A program made the translations under genes and the position numbers. From the NCBI GenBank assembly GCA_035307625.1, contig DATGHY010000358.1:2031-66030 (forward strand): 64,000 nt of DNA, given 5' to 3'. This DNA comes from Actinomycetota bacterium (GTDB lineage: Bacteria > Actinomycetota > AC-67). Shown here piece after piece: positions 40,359 to 48,146 of the stretch (positions are counted from its first letter, which is position 1; each line of letters begins with the position of its first letter). The notes under the pieces are model-generated. The model saw only the letters and a program-made list of their open reading frames with translations. It was not told the origin of the DNA and ran no database searches.

Positions 40359-41681
40359 TCATTCTTCGATGAAGGCTCCGCGCGCGCGCAACGCGACCTG
40401 CACGGCACCGACGTCGAGCGCGCGCAACGCGGTCCCGGTTCGAGCAGCCAGCGCCGCCGCCACGCCCGCCGCCTCTCCCTGCGCCATCGAGGGCGCGATC
40501 ACGCGCGTCGACGCGAGCGCTTCATGGGTCGCGCTTATGCAACGGCCGGCGACGAGCAGGTTGTCCACCCCCTGGACGAGCAACGACCGATACGGTACCT
40601 GGTAGTAGGCGCCTTCATCGAGCCAGACGTACTGGGTTTCCGTTCCCTCGACGTGGAACTCTTGCGGCCACGCACCGGCAGCGATCGCGTCCTCGAAGCG
40701 GGCTGCGCCCAGCACGTCGTCGCCGGTCAGCTCGTAGTCCCCGCGCGCGCGCCTCGTCTCCCGGACGCCGAGCTGCGTCGGCGTGTCGGCGAAGTAGGCA
40801 TTCTCGAAGCCGGGCATGTTCTCGATCAGGAACCTGCCGGCCTTCTCGGCCTCCGCGCGTCCGGCGATCTCGGCGGCCGTCGCTTCGAACGGGTCCGTCA
40901 TGTCGGGCGAGTGTCCGTCGACCCCGATCCGCGTCATGGCCCCGTACATCTCCCCCGTGCGCGCGGTCGGGAGCACCGCGCCACCCGTCCGCGACAATCC
41001 CCATTCGCGCCCCGTCGTCTGCAGGAGCTCTTGCAGCTTGTCCAGGCCGGCCGCAAACGCGGCCCCGACGTCGACGTTCTGCATCAGGAACTGCATCGAG
41101 GGGAACTGGCGCTGCCCCGGCCCGCCCATGTCGGTTCCAAGACCGGCGTGGTACGCGACGTCGGCGTCGCCGCTCGCGTCGATGAATACCGGCGCGGTTA
41201 TGGCGAGCGGCCCTCGCTTCGAGCCGACGACCACCGCTTCGATAGATGAGCCGGCACGCGCAACCTCCGTCACCGAGCAATGAAGCAGCGGCGTTAGATT
41301 TTCTTGCTCGGTCACCAAACGATCGGCGAGGAACTTGTACGCCCACGGCACGTAGAGGAAGACTGCAGTTTCCTTGAACGGAACGGGACCGCCGCCCAAT
41401 CCCATCGATGCGATCGCGTCGGCCCATTCGCCGGCGAACCCGCGACACACGCGATCGAAGCCGTCGGCGGTCTTGCGGTAGAGGCCGCAGATCGTCCCCA
41501 CCCACGCCGCCGTCGCGTTCCCGCCGAAGAATCCGTAGCGCTCGACGAGCACCGTGCGCGCGCCCGCTCGCGCTGAAGAGATCGCCGCGGCAAGGCCCGC
41601 CGACCCGCCGCCGACCACGACGACGTCGGCCTCGGCCAGGACGGGGGCCTCGCGTTCGTTGAGCGTGATCGGCGTCGCCAT
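40359..41681 (-). CDS. FAD-dependent oxidoreductase
   Basis: Dinucleotide-binding motif VVVVGGGSAGLAAAISSARAGARTVLVER; 440 aa. Confidence 0.78.
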   Translation of the reverse strand: MATPITLNEREAPVLAEADVVVVGGGSAGLAAAISSARAGARTVLVERYGFFGGNATAAWVGTICGLYRKTADGFDRVCRGFAGEWADAIASMGLGGGPVPFKETAVFLYVPWAYKFLADRLVTEQENLTPLLHCSVTEVARAGSSIEAVVVGSKRGPLAITAPVFIDASGDADVAYHAGLGTDMGGPGQRQFPSMQFLMQNVDVGAAFAAGLDKLQELLQTTGREWGLSRTGGAVLPTARTGEMYGAMTRIGVDGHSPDMTDPFEATAAEIAGRAEAEKAGRFLIENMPGFENAYFADTPTQLGVRETRRARGDYELTGDDVLGAARFEDAIAAGAWPQEFHVEGTETQYVWLDEGAYYQVPYRSLLVQGVDNLLVAGRCISATHEALASTRVIAPSMAQGEAAGVAAALAARTGTALRALDVGAVQVALRARGAFIEE

Positions 41682-41849
41682 AGACGCGCGCAAGTCTACG
41701 AGCGGCCCGTGCCCGATTCATCCCGTGATGGGCAAAAAGACCTGAAAAATAGGCCGCCCTGCCCACCGATCGCGCTCAAGTCACTCCTCTCAGCGCCGAT
41801 AGAACGGCTAGAGGTTGCAGCACTAGGTAGCGAGCCTGGACTGCAAGCC

Positions 41850-41962
41850 TGTTTCCACGACAAAGGCAAACCCGCCGCAAGGCGGGGACGCAAAGCCACG
41901 GGACCTTCCGCAGGGGTCAGCCGGGTTGCCGAAGGAGACGACGGAACGCAGTTGCCCGTCGA
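41850..41962 (+). ncRNA. Candidate c-di-GMP-I (GEMM) riboswitch in the 5' leader of the CAP-domain protein gene
   Basis: CACGACAAAGGCAAACC + CCCGCC-GCAA-GGCGGG GNRA hairpin + GGGACGCAAAGCCACGGGACC. Position-by-position match to the conserved GEMM-I core (Vc2: CACGCACAGGGCAAACC..GAAA..GGGACGCAAAGCCUCCGGCC). Sits in a 346-nt gene-free leader. Confidence 0.65.
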
Positions 41963-42027
41963 TCCAAGGCGTCAACGCCGTGGAGAGGCGGGCTTGTTGA
42001 TTCAGGCCCTGAACCAAGGGGCCAGTC

Positions 42028-42771
42028 ATGGGAAAGCGTTTCGCATCTGGGGCGCTCGTTGTGTCGATGATCGTTGCGGGCATCGTGACGGTCGCGGCAG
42101 GTATCGCATCCGCATCGACCGCGAGCGATGAATCACACTTCGTTTCACTGATCAACTACGAGCGTACGACCGACACCAAGTCGTGGTCGTGCGGTCGCGC
42201 CGGCGGGCTCAACGCACTCTCGGTTGCAAGCGATCTCGTTGCAGTCGCGCGCAAGCACAGCGAGCAGATGGCTGCCAAGGGCACGATCTGGCACGACTCC
42301 AGCACGTGGAACTCGGTCAGCGGCTGGAGCGAGTACGGCGAGAACGTCGGGATGGGCCCGAGCGACATCTCCGACCCGGTGGGCAACCTGCACACCGCGT
42401 TCATGAACTCCTCCGAGCACTGCCAGAACATCCTCTTCTCGCACTCGAACCCGGTCTTCAACCAGGTCGGTGTCGGCGTGGTCATCTCGAACAACACGAT
42501 GTATGTCACCGAGATCTTCGTGCGCCGCTCTTCGGGCTCGAGCTCGACGACCTACCACCGCTCGACGACCACGCGCAGCACGACGACCCACCACACCACG
42601 ACCTACCACCCCGTCGCGTCCGTGACGCGCGCCGCCGCGGCGAAGCCAAAGCCGAAGCCGCTGGCCGCGCCGCCGGTCGCAACACCGCAGACGGTCGACC
42701 TGCTGGTCCGCATGATCGGCATGGACTCTGACAACGTCGATCCCGCAACAGGAGCAGCTGCAGGGTTTTAG
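42028..42771 (+). CDS. Secreted CAP-domain (SCP/PR-1-like) protein
   Basis: Signal peptide (MGKRFASGALVVSMIVAGIVTVAAGIASA); CAP motifs (..HSEQMAAKGTIWHDS.., ..HTAFMNSSEHCQNIL..); Ser/Thr/His-rich C-terminal linker. Confidence 0.8.
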   Translation: MGKRFASGALVVSMIVAGIVTVAAGIASASTASDESHFVSLINYERTTDTKSWSCGRAGGLNALSVASDLVAVARKHSEQMAAKGTIWHDSSTWNSVSGWSEYGENVGMGPSDISDPVGNLHTAFMNSSEHCQNILFSHSNPVFNQVGVGVVISNNTMYVTEIFVRRSSGSSSTTYHRSTTTRSTTTHHTTTYHPVASVTRAAAAKPKPKPLAAPPVATPQTVDLLVRMIGMDSDNVDPATGAAAGF

Positions 42772-42812: not shown

Positions 42813-42860
42813 GCCCCGGGGCTTCGGCCCCGGGGCCGGCCCCCTTTCTGGGGTTGTTTC
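42813..42860 (+). terminator. Intrinsic terminator-like hairpin (GCCCCGGGGC-TTCG-GCCCCGGGGC) plus T-rich tail
   Basis: Perfect 10-bp stem with UUCG loop 40 nt after the CAP gene stop, followed by CCCCCTTTCTGGGGTTGTTTCT. Confidence 0.5.
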
Positions 42861-42921
42861 TAACGTTGTGTTCGCGCGCGCTTCGTGTGTCCTCGGTACC
42901 ATCTGTCTTTGAGGGGACGCG

Positions 42922-43722
42922 ATGACGAAATATCCACAACTTCTGTGTTCGACCGGGCCGTTCTACATGATGCCGATCGGCCAAGTCTTCGAGTCGTTCT
43001 CGCGCTCGGGCTTCAACGGCGCCGAAGTCATGGTCACGAGCGAGAAGGCAACGCAGGATCCGAAGGCGCTCAATGCCCTCGCCGAGGACTTCGGCGTCCA
43101 CATCGGCGCGATCCACGCTCCCTTCCTGCTTCTAACCCGAACGGTCTTTACCACCGATCCCCTCGAGAAGATCAAGCGATCCACGGACGTGGCGCACGGG
43201 TGCGGTGCACCCATCGTCGTCGTCCACCCGGCTTACCGGTGGCAGTTCGGCTTCAACTCTTGGCTCGAGAAAGACATCACCGAGTTCAACAAGAGCGAAG
43301 GGCTCACCGTTGCCGTCGAGAACATGTTCCCCGTATGGGTCCGGGGCCGCGGCTTCACGTTCCACCGGTCGCTCGGCGTCGAGGACATGAAGAAGTTCCC
43401 CGCGATAACCCTGGACACGAGCCATCTCGCGGTCAGCGGTATCGACATCATCCGAGCCTTCGAAGAGCTTCAGGACCGGATCGTTCACATCCACTTGTCG
43501 AACAACCTCGGGACCGGCCGGGACACACACTCGCCGCTCACCCAGGGCGTCCTCCCCATCGGCTCGCTGCTCAAGCGGATCGCGGGCGCCGGCTATACGG
43601 GGACGATCACGCTCGAGCTTGACGTCCGGGAATGGGCGAGCAAGCCGGCCCAGCTGGCCTCCGTTCTTAGGGAACAGCGGGAATTCTGCCTGGACCGCCT
43701 CGGCGCGCCTGCCGGGGCCTAG
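42922..43722 (+). CDS. Sugar phosphate isomerase/epimerase (xylose-isomerase-like TIM barrel)
   Basis: 266 aa; ..AVENMFP.., ..IVHIHLSNN.. metal-site-like motifs. Confidence 0.78.
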   Translation: MTKYPQLLCSTGPFYMMPIGQVFESFSRSGFNGAEVMVTSEKATQDPKALNALAEDFGVHIGAIHAPFLLLTRTVFTTDPLEKIKRSTDVAHGCGAPIVVVHPAYRWQFGFNSWLEKDITEFNKSEGLTVAVENMFPVWVRGRGFTFHRSLGVEDMKKFPAITLDTSHLAVSGIDIIRAFEELQDRIVHIHLSNNLGTGRDTHSPLTQGVLPIGSLLKRIAGAGYTGTITLELDVREWASKPAQLASVLREQREFCLDRLGAPAGA

Positions 43723-43828
43723 CCCGCGGGGGCTAGAGGATCTCTCAAGTCCGGGGGTTTTGGTGCCGAACCCCTAAACGTCGCCTGTGTCCGTTACGGG
43801 CGGCCGGAAAGGGAGACCAAAGACGAAC

Positions 43829-44206
43829 GTGGCTATCCGGGTTCTGATCGTCGACGACACCGATCATGTGCGGAACATGCTTTCGCACATGCTGACCCTC
43901 GACGGCTTCGACGTGGTCGGTGCCGTGGGCGGAGCCGCTGAAGGGATCGGCGCGCTCTCCCTCTTCGAACCGGACATCGTGATCATGGATCTCAAGATGC
44001 CGATCATGGACGGCATCGCGGCGACGCGCGCGATGCGCGAGGATCATCCAACGCTTCCGATCGTCCTCTACACGGCCTACCTCGACGACGCGATCGCCGA
44101 GCGCGCGCGCGAAGCCGGCGTCACCGCGTGCATCGGCAAGGTGGAAGGCATCGCGTCGCTCGAGCGCGAGATCTCAGCGCTGTGCTTGGAGCTCGTCGAG
44201 CACTAA
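43829..44206 (+). CDS. Stand-alone response-regulator receiver domain (CheY-like)
   Basis: GTG start after AAGGGAGA ribosome-binding site; ..IRVLIVDDTDHVRNML.., phospho-acceptor ..IVIMDLKMPIMDG.., ..LYTAY.. Confidence 0.8.
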   Translation: MAIRVLIVDDTDHVRNMLSHMLTLDGFDVVGAVGGAAEGIGALSLFEPDIVIMDLKMPIMDGIAATRAMREDHPTLPIVLYTAYLDDAIAERAREAGVTACIGKVEGIASLEREISALCLELVEH

Positions 44207-46102: not shown

Positions 46103-46777
46103 GTGACTATGGCTTTGAGGCACGAACGAGCTATCAAATACGCCGCGTCGCGGGTCGATACCGCGAGCGTAGCCATGGCAATGCGACCCGTACCTTCTGA
46201 GCTTCCGATCGCCGGCGCAGTCGGCGAAGACGACGTCATCGCGCTCGTCGACCGCGCGCGAGACGGCGAGCCCGACGCATTCGCATCTCTCTACGACCGG
46301 TACGTCGACCGGGTGTACCGGTTCGTGCTCTACCGCGTAAGCGGCGACACAGCGCTTGCTGAAGACATCACGAGCGAAGTGTTCGTGCGCGCGCTCCGCA
46401 AGATCAAAGGTTTCACGTGGCAAGGGCGTGACGTTGGCGCCTGGTTCGTCACCATCGCCCGGAACCTCGTGCTCGACCACTTCAAGTCGGGCCGGTTCCG
46501 CCTCGAAGTCATCGGCGCCGACCCAGGCGAATCGTCTCGCGAAGGCGTCGTGGACCCCGAAGACGCCGCGCTTTCCCGCGTTTCACAAGCGGACCTGTAT
46601 CGTGCGATCCAGCAGCTCGGGAACGAGCAGCAAGAAGTCATCTATTGGCGGTTCCTCCAGGGCTACTCAGTCGCCGAGGCCGCCGCAGCCATGGACAAGA
46701 GCGAAGGTGCGATCAAGGCACTTCAGTACAGAGCGGTAAAAGCCCTGTACAAGCTCGTTGTCGTGGATGATGACTAG
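46103..46777 (+). CDS. ECF-type RNA polymerase sigma factor
   Basis: Region 2 (..FASLYDRYVDRVYRFVLYRV..) and region 4 (..YWRFLQGYSVAEAAAAMDKSEGAIKALQYRAVKAL..). Start may be ATG 46109 or Met 46175. Confidence 0.85.
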   Translation: MTMALRHERAIKYAASRVDTASVAMAMRPVPSELPIAGAVGEDDVIALVDRARDGEPDAFASLYDRYVDRVYRFVLYRVSGDTALAEDITSEVFVRALRKIKGFTWQGRDVGAWFVTIARNLVLDHFKSGRFRLEVIGADPGESSREGVVDPEDAALSRVSQADLYRAIQQLGNEQQEVIYWRFLQGYSVAEAAAAMDKSEGAIKALQYRAVKALYKLVVVDDD

Positions 46778-46859
46778 TCCATTCGAATCACCCGAAAAAC
46801 CACCCCTTGGACTTCCATCACCAAACCGGGCGATGCGTCGTTGTCCCCAGTGAGAAACC

Positions 46860-48146
46860 ATGCCCAGCCGACGGCCCACGGACAAGGGATTTAGCGACCT
46901 CCTCGAGGGAAAGCTCGTGGAGGCTTCGCCCGAGCTGGAGCGACTCCGCAAGATCGCGAACGCGCTAGCGCCTACCGAGCGCCCCTCCCCCTCATCGCAG
47001 TTCCGCGCGCGCCTGCGTAACGAGCTCTTGGCCGCAGCATCGGTATCCGAAGAAGACACGTTCGCCGCGCTGCTCGAAGGACTTCCGATCGAAGCGCCGG
47101 CCGAAGTCGGTGCGCTCGTCGCGGTCGCCGCGGCTTTGCAGCCCGCGAGCCTGCCGCTCCCGGATCCCGCGTTCCGTTATCGCTTGCGCAACGAGCTGAT
47201 CGACATGGCGTCCGGACGCAGCACGCTCGGCGCGCGCGCTCGCAACCGCTTCGTTGCGATCAACGAGCGCATGCGCCGAAGCTTCCGAGTCGTCGTTGCG
47301 ACGGGACTCGCCGCAGCGATCCTGGCCGGCGGGGGCGCGACGTTGGCGGCGGCTTCGAGCGCGCTGCCGGGCGATGCGTTGTACCCGGTGAAGCTCTTCC
47401 GAGAGAACGTTCAGCTTGCCTTCGCCTCCGGCACGACCGAGGGACTGAAGCGACTGCAGTTCGCGCGCACACGATTGGATGAGATCAGAGGCCTCGAGGC
47501 GCGCGGCTCGCGCAACTCAGATCTCTACATCTCGACATTGGATCGCATGGATTCGCTGACGCAAACGGGTAGCACGATCCTCATCGATGCGGTCCGTGCC
47601 GGCGGCGCGAAGACATCGATCCTGAAGAGTGTGGGCGGCTTCACGTCTGTGCAGCAGCAGGATCTGCAGGCGCTGATCCCGAACATGCCGGTCGGTGCGC
47701 TCCCCGCCGCGCGCGACTCCCTTGTCTTGCTCGAAACCGTCACACACACCGTGAACGCCGTGCTAAGCGGATGCCCGTGCAACCCGCCATCGAACCCGTT
47801 GATCCCGCAGTCCGGGTCGGCGACGAGCTCCAGCCCATCGGTGCAGTGCACGTGCAACCAGACCAACAACGGATCCGATTCGCAAGCGTCGGGCGGCAAC
47901 AGCAACAGCGGCGCGTCGGGCGGCAACACGCGCAACCCGGCGCAGAAGCCGCAGACGCCGACGACGTCACCGAGCGGTCCGGTCGAACAGCTCGTCCCCG
48001 ATGTGCCCGGGACGAATGTGGACAATCAAGTCACGGGTCTCATCGATTCGCTGATCTCGAAAGTGCCGGTGCCGGTGCCGTCGATCACGCCGCCGCCGCT
48101 CGTTCCGAGTCATTTGCCCACTCCGTCGTTGCCCGGGCTTCCGTAA
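46860..48146 (+). CDS. Anti-sigma factor (single TM; actinobacterial DUF5667-type) with Ser/Pro/Asn-rich C-terminal tail
   Basis: Directly downstream of the ECF sigma; predicted TM ..VVVATGLAAAILAGGGATLAAA..; extracytoplasmic domain; low-complexity C-terminus. Confidence 0.7.
   Translation: MPSRRPTDKGFSDLLEGKLVEASPELERLRKIANALAPTERPSPSSQFRARLRNELLAAASVSEEDTFAALLEGLPIEAPAEVGALVAVAAALQPASLPLPDPAFRYRLRNELIDMASGRSTLGARARNRFVAINERMRRSFRVVVATGLAAAILAGGGATLAAASSALPGDALYPVKLFRENVQLAFASGTTEGLKRLQFARTRLDEIRGLEARGSRNSDLYISTLDRMDSLTQTGSTILIDAVRAGGAKTSILKSVGGFTSVQQQDLQALIPNMPVGALPAARDSLVLLETVTHTVNAVLSGCPCNPPSNPLIPQSGSATSSSPSVQCTCNQTNNGSDSQASGGNSNSGASGGNTRNPAQKPQTPTTSPSGPVEQLVPDVPGTNVDNQVTGLIDSLISKVPVPVPSITPPPLVPSHLPTPSLPGLP

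Follow-up and report, generated by a model that had tools for sequence, protein, structure and literature searches.

The 346-nt gene-free leader (41682-42027) of a gene for a secreted CAP/PR-1-domain protein, lying in a stretch of 64,000 nucleotides from an uncultured soil Actinomycetota metagenome-assembled genome (MAG; contig DATGHY010000358.1; "the window" below means this whole 64-kb stretch), carries an element that is almost certainly a real class-I aptamer for c-di-GMP (cyclic diguanosine monophosphate). The explanation that best fits the leader as a whole, and one in which I have good though not complete confidence, combines a sigma-28-type promoter, the aptamer, a terminator that would form when the ligand is bound and a hairpin that would mask the Shine-Dalgarno sequence. 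A preliminary description had proposed a GEMM-I aptamer, a secreted CAP-domain target and alternative downstream hairpins that include the AAGGGG Shine-Dalgarno sequence; the strings it quoted were all located and its gene-free interval agrees with the gene calls on the source contig. The aptamer and its target stand, as do the hairpins around the Shine-Dalgarno sequence, but that picture of the platform was incomplete, as a putative terminator/anti-terminator pair and an upstream sigma-28/WhiG-type motif are there as well.

The aptamer was detected by scanning the whole window with cmscan against 4227 Rfam families at the gathering threshold, which returned exactly one match, on the plus strand at 41856-41934, covering the full model (1-80) with 78.1 bits (gathering 59) and an E-value of 7.5e-17. 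The significant match in the c-di-GMP-I clan (CL00126) that had been anticipated is therefore present, although the winning model is RF03167 ('c-di-GMP-I-GGC') and not the RF01051 that had been named; only the best member of a clan is reported after competition, and two lower-scoring matches of the same clan were suppressed for the window. My own covariance model, R1, scores the window aptamer at 95 bits. The element has the three helices, the GNRA-capped P2 and the binding-site nucleotides expected of its class: in the numbering of Vc2, where G20, A47 and C92 contact the ligand and a C-G interhelical pair is universally conserved (PMC4744006), the equivalents are G41865, A41892 and C41929, and the predicted interhelical pair would join C41889 (C44, in GAC-GC) to G41920 (G83, in the AG bulge of P3). 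As far as sequence can tell, every hallmark of a class-I c-di-GMP riboswitch is present in the window element. Two other signals in the region were discarded: a match to the snoRNA sR40 at 41976-42013 (18.3 bits where the gathering threshold is 50, E 0.3), which came up when 41600-42100 was scanned permissively and is attributable to chance, and a terminator-like site on the minus strand at 41886-41871, which is simply P2 in reverse complement with the complement of AAAGGCAAA after it, no minus-strand gene ending there.

The aptamer travels with the CAP gene. Among 80 metagenomic loci, fetched by means of an alignment of 32 CAP homologues and searched with a covariance model built from 24 distinct aptamers, it lies directly upstream and on the same strand in about 49, where the CAP proteins are 33-88% identical to that of the window, and several of the remaining loci lack upstream sequence; the expectation that the leader would be found before related CAP genes is borne out. 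Over its 81 nt the aptamer of the window shows 100% identity to those of loci L004, L006-L012 and L014 (the prefix L marks loci retrieved for this analysis), while the CAP proteins of these loci are only 62-88% identical to the window's and the flanking TIM-barrel and FAD-oxidoreductase proteins 87-98%, which means that the coding sequence is evolving fast and the RNA is frozen; divergence of CAP beyond that of its neighbors is expected for an exposed secreted protein. RNAalifold applied to the MAFFT alignment alone recovers P2 and P3, with compensatory change in 10 of 19 pairs, and when 34 distinct sequences are aligned by fitting to the model, paired cells make up 91.8%, compared with 79.3% in shuffles and 20-42% for slid partners, with 11 pairs changing on both sides and not one of 500 shuffles reaching any of the observed measures. 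Of the covariation that had been predicted, that of P2 and P3 is thus found, and that of P1 is poorly quantified. The P2 loop is GCAA in the window and a GNRA tetraloop in all 34 aligned sequences (also GCGA, GUGA, GAAA, GAGA, GGAA, GUAA and GGGA), and the equivalents of G20, A47, C92, C44 and G83 are invariant in the aligned CAP-linked aptamers.

A second aptamer subtype, GGCACAC...GGGCCGCAAAGG, occurs with the same contact nucleotides at 10 loci (L033, L034, L042, L045-L047, L055, L058, L079 and L081), before CAP genes that are more distant and start with GTG. It differs by a set of paired changes (GGCAAAC to GGCACAC, GGGACGC to GGGCCGC, and AAAGCC/GGGUU to AAAGGC/GCCC), the first two of which fall in unpaired bulges on either side of P2 and may reflect a co-varying tertiary contact. 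Beyond the CAP loci, the core pattern GGCAAAC-N12-20-GGACGC[A/G]AAGCCACGG was scanned over 185,579 species genomes, and the statement that GEMM riboswitches are uncommon in high-GC Gram-positive bacteria found no support there, with Actinomycetota making up 27 of the first 80 among the matches listed (Cellulomonas, Rubrobacter, Solirubrobacteraceae, Acidimicrobiaceae, Frankiales and Micrococcales).

Upstream of the aptamers, the alignment of CAP leaders contains two conserved blocks, CTCAAG-N14/15-GCCGATAG, from which transcription of the window leader would start near 41808-41810. Published search rules for WhiG promoters are -35 TAAA, N15, -10 GCCGATAA (PMC8325347) and CTCA-N16/17-GCCGA or T(A/C)AA-N16-GCCGA (PMC12871210), and the window motif can be read by them as CTCA-N16-GCCGA and TCAA-N15-GCCGATAG, at a distance of 227 nt from the ATG compared with a limit of 200 bp in the rule, with the riboswitch lying in between. 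A strict regular expression for the motif has 2 matches in the window where 0.12 would be expected, and 29 of 39 CAP loci (25 of 30 for the aptamer subtype of the window) match the published rule, with N15 also allowed, somewhere in the 130 nt upstream of their aptamer, against a background of 0.045 per 130 nt. The motif stands 20-60 nt upstream of the riboswitch and was seen in L004-L041, L051-L077 and L033. If the resemblance is taken at face value, the motif would be recognized by a sigma factor of the WhiG type, an assignment that I put at no better than even; no whiG gene is visible within the window.

The same succession of motif and aptamer is found in other genomes, where the published rule matches 21 of 120 aptamers among the matches listed in the genome scan, mostly 46-73 nt upstream and in several cases perfectly. 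Behind it stand type IV pilin genes (N_methyl motif, GFTLIELLVV) in MAGs of Actinomycetota/Solirubrobacterales (loci in Table 1), a GGDEF diguanylate cyclase gene in L134 (Acidimicrobiaceae) and CAP-domain genes in two Solirubrobacteraceae MAGs (L095 and L132), the last of which were found by Pfam and are too diverged for tblastn with the window CAP protein, a search that gave no match at 1e-5 within 1.5 kb downstream of the 123 listed genomic aptamers. A second copy of the leader lies at L127:2028. Rubrobacter marinus SCSIO 52915 (L162; NZ_CP045121.1), which is cultured and has a complete genome, carries a perfect TAAA-N16-GCCGATAA (TAAAGGTTTCTCATCGACGTGCCGATAA) about 50 nt upstream of a c-di-GMP-I aptamer whose core lies at 196-232 of the locus on the minus strand, and it is in the genus Rubrobacter that the RsiG-WhiG c-di-GMP switch has been characterized. 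The gene behind this aptamer is truncated where the retrieved locus ends.

Downstream of the ligand-binding core, the leader has the predicted layout of a bistable switch. P1 extends 6 or 7 pairs beyond the Rfam model, by pairing of 41850-41856 (UGUUUCC) with 41934-41940 (GGAGACG), and compensatory variants of this extension are seen as GUCUCC/GGAGAC-type pairs in many relatives, GUCUUC/GAAGAC in L076 and CGACC/GGUCG in subtype B. The 3' strand of the extended P1 is shared with the 5' part (41934-41940) of a candidate anti-terminator strand, which can pair with CCGUCGAUCC (41956-41965), the 5' arm of a hairpin that resembles an intrinsic terminator; this anti-terminator hairpin is seen in nascent-transcript folds and has an energy of -12.6 kcal/mol alone. 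Since the geometry of internal loops shifts the register between relatives and makes column-wise covariation unsuitable, the terminator and anti-terminator were assessed by folding each sequence separately. Across 22 relatives, the duplex of the anti-terminator strand with the terminator 5' arm has energies of -13 to -21 kcal/mol and a mean z-score of -2.5 against shuffled anti-terminator strands, and the relatives measured typically have a GC-rich stem with a 9-nt tail that contains 5-7 U. The strand after P1 looks like the terminator 3' arm, and both vary in step with the 5' arm across relatives, as can be seen by comparing strand after P1, 5' arm and 3' arm in the window (GGAGACGACGG, GCCCGUCGAUCC, GGAGAGGCGGGC), in L016 (GGGGUUGGCGGG, GCCCGUCUUCCC, GGGGAUGGACGGGC) and in L017 (GGAGGGGAUGGG, GCCCGUUUCCUC, GAGGAGAACGGGC). 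If the transcript stops at the U-rich tail, the anti-terminated fold, in which the anti-terminator strand pairs with the terminator 5' arm and the P1 5' strand with the terminator 3' arm, has the minimum free energy (-70.8 kcal/mol), and the fold with P1, P2, P3 and the terminator comes to -67.7 kcal/mol. The window's two states are thus nearly isoenergetic, and no more than 3 kcal/mol separates them in 14 of 18 relatives. Termination at 41954-42002 is a putative function.

A further hairpin in the minimum-free-energy and centroid folds is predicted to hide the Shine-Dalgarno sequence AAGGGG (42016-42021), which stands six bases 5' of the start codon ATG (42028-42030). It pairs TGATT (41998-42002) with AGTCA (42024-42028) and GGCCCT (42005-42010) with GGGGCC (42018-42023), giving the Shine-Dalgarno sequence a pairing probability of 0.8 in the window, with the A of the AUG also paired, and its outer helix is built from the U-rich tail of the putative terminator. 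Compensatory changes accompany it, from TGATT/AGTCA in the window to TGTTT/GAACA in L006, CTGTTCGGACC/GGCCGGACAG in L016 and CTCGAGC/GCTCGAG in L041. Other relatives have other platforms: the Shine-Dalgarno sequence of L048, L049 and L039 lies immediately next to the 3' extension of P1 or overlaps it, and in L051, L053, L060, L063, L069 and L077 P1 is followed by a GGGGC strand in competition with a 10-bp hairpin that would hide the Shine-Dalgarno sequence.

Put together, the leader would be the complete control region of a single-gene unit for the secreted CAP protein. Transcription would probably start from the sigma-28-family promoter, and the transcript would form the class-I aptamer with its three-helix junction, GNRA-capped P2, G20/A47/C92 contacts and C44-G83 pair. 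Without ligand, the anti-terminator strand would pair with the terminator 5' arm and the P1 5' strand with the 3' arm, so that RNA polymerase reads through; with c-di-GMP bound, P1 would close, both arms would be freed, and the terminator with its U-rich tail could form, that tail being also able to close the second hairpin and bury the Shine-Dalgarno sequence together with the start codon. At high c-di-GMP, synthesis of the CAP protein would then be stopped at the level of transcription, and probably at that of translation too. That the polarity is OFF, whichever of the two mechanisms applies, is probable on structural and comparative grounds, because a ligand-stabilized P1 would free both terminator arms, and the other platforms agree with it, since their Shine-Dalgarno sequence abuts or overlaps the P1 extension or their GGGGC strand competes with the masking hairpin.

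Several observations weigh against this account. The duplex z-scores of the P1 extension are weak (mean -0.7), and its support rests on the compensatory examples because G-rich and C/U-rich 9-mers pair promiscuously. P1 as a whole has only 66-78% of cells paired in the alignment, an under-count that arises because in one out of three sequences J1/2 differs in length by one base. Because its U tract is interrupted (6 U in 9), the 41954-41993 hairpin drew no call from a simple terminator scan. When the whole leader is folded through the start codon, thermodynamic folding keeps the terminator with or without P1, so that the switch would have to act kinetically during transcription. The promoter motif may belong to a nearby extracytoplasmic function (ECF) sigma factor, with its other copy at 46134; the GGC variant is the best-scoring Rfam model, and clan competition masks the RF01051 score of the window; and Bc1 is a precedent for a failure of regulation in vivo despite a well-formed class-I aptamer (PMC11218506).

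The alternative that survives best concerns the promoter alone, and holds that the TCAAG-N-GCCGATA motif is the target of that ECF sigma factor (46103-46777), or of some other regulator, instead of a WhiG/FliA promoter. I consider this unlikely, though worth serious attention, given that the motif's sole other strict occurrence in the window (46134-46160, plus strand) sits at the 5' end of the ECF sigma open reading frame, with a gene for a DUF5667 protein, possibly an anti-sigma factor, next to it, and that ECF sigma genes are commonly autoregulated. However, a -10 of GCCGATA(A/G), a spacer of 15-16 nt and a -35 of T(A/C)AA are the hallmark of the sigma-28 family, and the motif also precedes c-di-GMP-I aptamers before type IV pilin and GGDEF genes elsewhere in the Actinomycetota, genes of the classes that WhiG is reported to target in Rubrobacter (PMC8325347). 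The copy at 46134 could itself be accommodated, in that the ECF gene could be a WhiG target, transcription factors being frequent among the predicted ones (PMC12871210).

A somewhat less probable alternative accepts the c-di-GMP-I aptamer and makes it an ON switch, or one acting on translation only, with the GC-rich hairpin as a structural element and no terminator. Riboswitches in high-GC Actinomycetota often act on translation, and class-I c-di-GMP switches of both the ON and the OFF type are known; moreover, the U tract is imperfect and escaped the terminator scan, and it could be conserved simply because it forms the 5' strand of the conserved Shine-Dalgarno hairpin. Yet the overlap between the P1 3' strand and the strand that competes with the terminator is the geometry of an OFF switch, the relatives that lack a terminator, with a Shine-Dalgarno sequence abutting or overlapping the P1 3' extension, again point to OFF, and the GC-rich stem with U-rich tail is typical of the relatives measured. 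An OFF switch working through translation only, which would keep the polarity favored here, is quite possible.

The identity of the ligand leaves less room for doubt. The class-I scaffold can switch its selectivity with few changes (PMC7266159), and a G20A change lets the Vc2 scaffold bind cyclic GMP-AMP (cGAMP; PMC7288161), so the shared fold alone would also accommodate a sensor of 3',3'-cGAMP (GEMM-Ib type); selectivity for cGAMP goes with an A at this position, however, and that defining A is absent from the window, which has G at 41865, as do all aligned relatives, making this reading very improbable.

The Rfam label raises the second question of ligand. RF03167 is a model for a candidate variant of altered specificity, built around changed ligand-contact nucleotides, and its consensus has G at model position 10 (G20), G at 37 (the A47 equivalent, GACGCGAA) and C at 75 (C92), identities that I take, from the consensus line, to be what 'GGC' stands for. 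In the cmscan alignment A41892 is shown as a mismatch to position 37, and the equivalent of position 47 is A in every aligned CAP-linked aptamer, with none having G; it is likewise A in all 123 among the matches listed for the core pattern, though the pattern allowed A or G. When the two models were compared on L016, L017, L024, L049, L076, L084, L086, L089, L095, L129, L136 and L162, RF03167 was found to beat RF01051 on A47 aptamers of Desulforamulus, Chloroflexia, Myxococcota, Rubrobacter and Solirubrobacteraceae, whereas RF01051 takes the sister CAP leaders L051, L042 and L033, with 50-78 bits (gathering 35); ordinary A47 aptamers from at least five phyla are won by RF03167 in clan competition, and the model seems to favor short-P3, GC-rich aptamers regardless of the base at position 47. 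The RF03167 label on the window is thus not diagnostic, because the defining position has A and the model also wins A47 aptamers of unrelated phyla, and the binding-site nucleotides read as canonical c-di-GMP-I. That the element is an orphan c-di-GMP-I-GGC variant with a ligand other than c-di-GMP, as its best-scoring Rfam family would have it, was rejected as extremely improbable on the strength of this A in place of G in the window, its CAP relatives and the genomic matches listed. The practical consequence is that automated annotation will over-report the variant, since clan competition puts its name on canonical aptamers, and that counts of the variant will mislead.

Returning to c-di-GMP as the ligand, the window element can be set beside systems already described. 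With Vc2 of Vibrio cholerae and the class-I riboswitch of the flgB operon in Clostridioides difficile, both examples of RF01051, it shares the three-helix junction, the GNRA-capped P2, the G20/A47/C92 contacts and the C44-G83 pair, and it is unlike them in its host, an uncultured soil Actinomycetota, in its CAP/PR-1-domain target, in a putative terminator tail that doubles as a strand of the Shine-Dalgarno hairpin and in the sigma-28/WhiG-type motif upstream. The class-I switches of C. difficile are transcriptional OFF switches (PMC11477304), and the window would resemble them in its putative terminator-based OFF geometry and resembles them in a target gene that is secreted or surface-related. 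With the RF03167 variant it has in common a short P3 and GC-rich helices, but the window and all its relatives have A where the variant has its defining G. Bc1 of Bacillus thuringiensis joins a class-I aptamer to a long platform with two terminators and 'incoherent' dual regulation, and showed no c-di-GMP response in vivo (PMC11218506); the window platform is also long and would combine elements of transcription termination and of translation, but it has one putative terminator, and its Shine-Dalgarno hairpin would act in the same direction as that terminator (coherent). Finally, c-di-GMP-loaded RsiG sequesters WhiG in Streptomyces and Rubrobacter (PMC7005675, PMC8325347), and the reported WhiG targets in Rubrobacter are type IV pili and enzymes of c-di-GMP turnover (PMC8325347). 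The second messenger and the phylum are the same, the direction, with high c-di-GMP lowering the expression of WhiG targets, would be the same too, and the window motif fits the WhiG/flagellar consensus in sequence, but RsiG-WhiG is a protein-based control of transcription initiation whereas the window element is an RNA that would act after initiation. The word riboswitch does not occur in the WhiG regulon papers PMC8325347 and PMC12871210, and PMC7005675 names GEMM riboswitches solely as one of the known kinds of c-di-GMP effector. No report of a class-I c-di-GMP riboswitch with a CAP/PR-1 protein as its target came up in literature searches. The RNA class is thoroughly characterized and already found by standard Rfam annotation; what is new is the unreported CAP-protein target and the arrangement of a sigma-28-type promoter with the riboswitch.

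The regulated gene, at 42028-42771, matches Pfam CAP (PF00188) at 40.3 bits (cutoff 21.1), and its product has a Sec-type N-terminus by inspection (MGKRF, a hydrophobic stretch and ASA|ST), so that the secreted CAP-domain target of the preliminary description stands. Behind the signal peptide come the CAP domain (residues 40-161), a linker rich in Ser and Thr, and a C-terminal tail that is conserved; the last approximately 30 residues of the protein (TVDLLVRMxGMDxDxVDPATGAAAGF) hardly vary even among homologues with as little as about 45% overall identity. A search found 213 homologues, some of them titled 'CAP domain-containing protein [Actinomycetota bacterium]'. Behind the stop codon lie two GC-rich hairpins and a U-rich stretch (fold z-score -3.3; none of 200 shuffles folds equally well), which probably mark the end of a single-gene transcription unit. 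The order CAP, TIM barrel, receiver is kept down to approximately 40% CAP identity (L024, L025, L040, L060, L069, L076 and L077), and in some loci the receiver gene follows CAP directly. An operon of CAP with these two genes was considered, as the synteny is deep, and was set aside on account of the strong hairpins and U-rich stretch, for which reason CAP is treated as monocistronic; the conserved order may nevertheless mean a functional link. The rest of the window holds nuo, bc1, haem-biosynthesis and similar housekeeping genes. For HemB, the closest relatives with a name all come from MAGs labelled 'Actinomycetota bacterium', which gives no placement at the level of class. Consistent with the earlier remark that the window has no GGDEF or EAL gene, Pfam found no gene for a c-di-GMP enzyme or receptor among the 46 proteins scanned and a GG[DE]EF regular expression had no match, and EAL-like and PilZ-like matches were discarded because they lie in wrong-frame open reading frames.

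Table 1. Positions of the leader elements and neighboring genes in the window, and of pilin loci with the same arrangement in other genomes
Feature	Position	Strand	Sequence, basis or remark
FAD-dependent oxidoreductase gene, upstream	40359-41681	-	divergent; called start 41681
Candidate sigma-28-family (WhiG/FliA-type) promoter	41775-41801	+	CTCAAG (-35; TCAA 41776-41779), 15-nt spacer, GCCGATAG (-10; 41794-41801)
c-di-GMP-I aptamer with extended P1	41850-41940	+	Rfam match 41856-41934
P1	41850-41859 with 41930-41940	+	
P2	41866-41891	+	GNRA loop GCAA at 41877-41880
P3	41894-41927	+	
CACGACAAAGGCAAACC	41856-41872	+	string located in window
CCCGCC-GCAA-GGCGGG hairpin	41871-41886	+	string located in window
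GGGACGCAAAGCCACGGGACC	41884-41904	+	string located in window
Candidate anti-terminator strand	41934-41944	+	GGAGACGACGG; 5' part 41934-41940 shared with 3' strand of extended P1
Intrinsic-terminator-like hairpin	41954-41993	+	GCCCGTCGATCCAAGGCGTCAACGCCGTGGAGAGGCGGGC; fold -27.8 kcal/mol
U-rich tail	41994-42002	+	TTGTTGATT (RNA UUGUUGAUU); 6 U in 9
Predicted Shine-Dalgarno-hiding hairpin	41998-42030	+	minimum-free-energy and centroid folds
Secreted CAP/PR-1 protein gene (PF00188, YkwD-like), regulated gene	42028-42771	+	247 aa; Pfam match
Two GC-rich hairpins after CAP stop codon, then TTTCT	42813-42836 (UUCG loop), 42837-42856; whole 42813-42861	+	fold z-score
Xylose-isomerase-like TIM-barrel gene	42922-43722	+	
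Stand-alone receiver (CheY-like) gene	43787-44206	+	
ECF sigma factor gene (Sigma70_r2 + r4_2)	46103-46777	+	Pfam
DUF5667 protein gene, possibly anti-sigma factor	46854-48146	+	after ECF sigma gene
Type IV pilin locus with motif and aptamer	L112:357-752		
Type IV pilin locus with motif and aptamer	L127:1319-1765		
Type IV pilin locus with motif and aptamer	L150:5506-5970	-	
Type IV pilin locus with motif and aptamer	L151:6670-7080	-	
Type IV pilin locus with motif and aptamer	L172:1773-2210		

The bacterial CAP/YkwD-like family is uncharacterized and has no known function, and the leader provides a first regulatory clue for it, tying c-di-GMP to a fast-evolving secreted CAP/PR-1 protein across a broad uncultured actinobacterial lineage. 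The motif before the riboswitch, and the same arrangement before pilin and GGDEF genes, suggest that RNA-based and sigma/anti-sigma control by c-di-GMP may be stacked on the same genes. From this comes a proposal that I offer tentatively and hold to be somewhat more doubtful than not, namely that in soil Actinomycetota c-di-GMP controls a surface and secreted set (the CAP protein, type IV pilins and diguanylate cyclases) twice in series, at initiation through a sigma factor of the sigma-28/WhiG type and again through the riboswitch. Alternatively, if the sigma factor is one of the WhiG1 clade, which does not depend on RsiG, it would have no c-di-GMP input of its own, and the riboswitch would provide one. 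If the control in series is real, it would amount to a coherent double lock allowing expression only at low c-di-GMP, and it would place the CAP/YkwD-like protein in the pilus and motility (dispersal) program of these bacteria.

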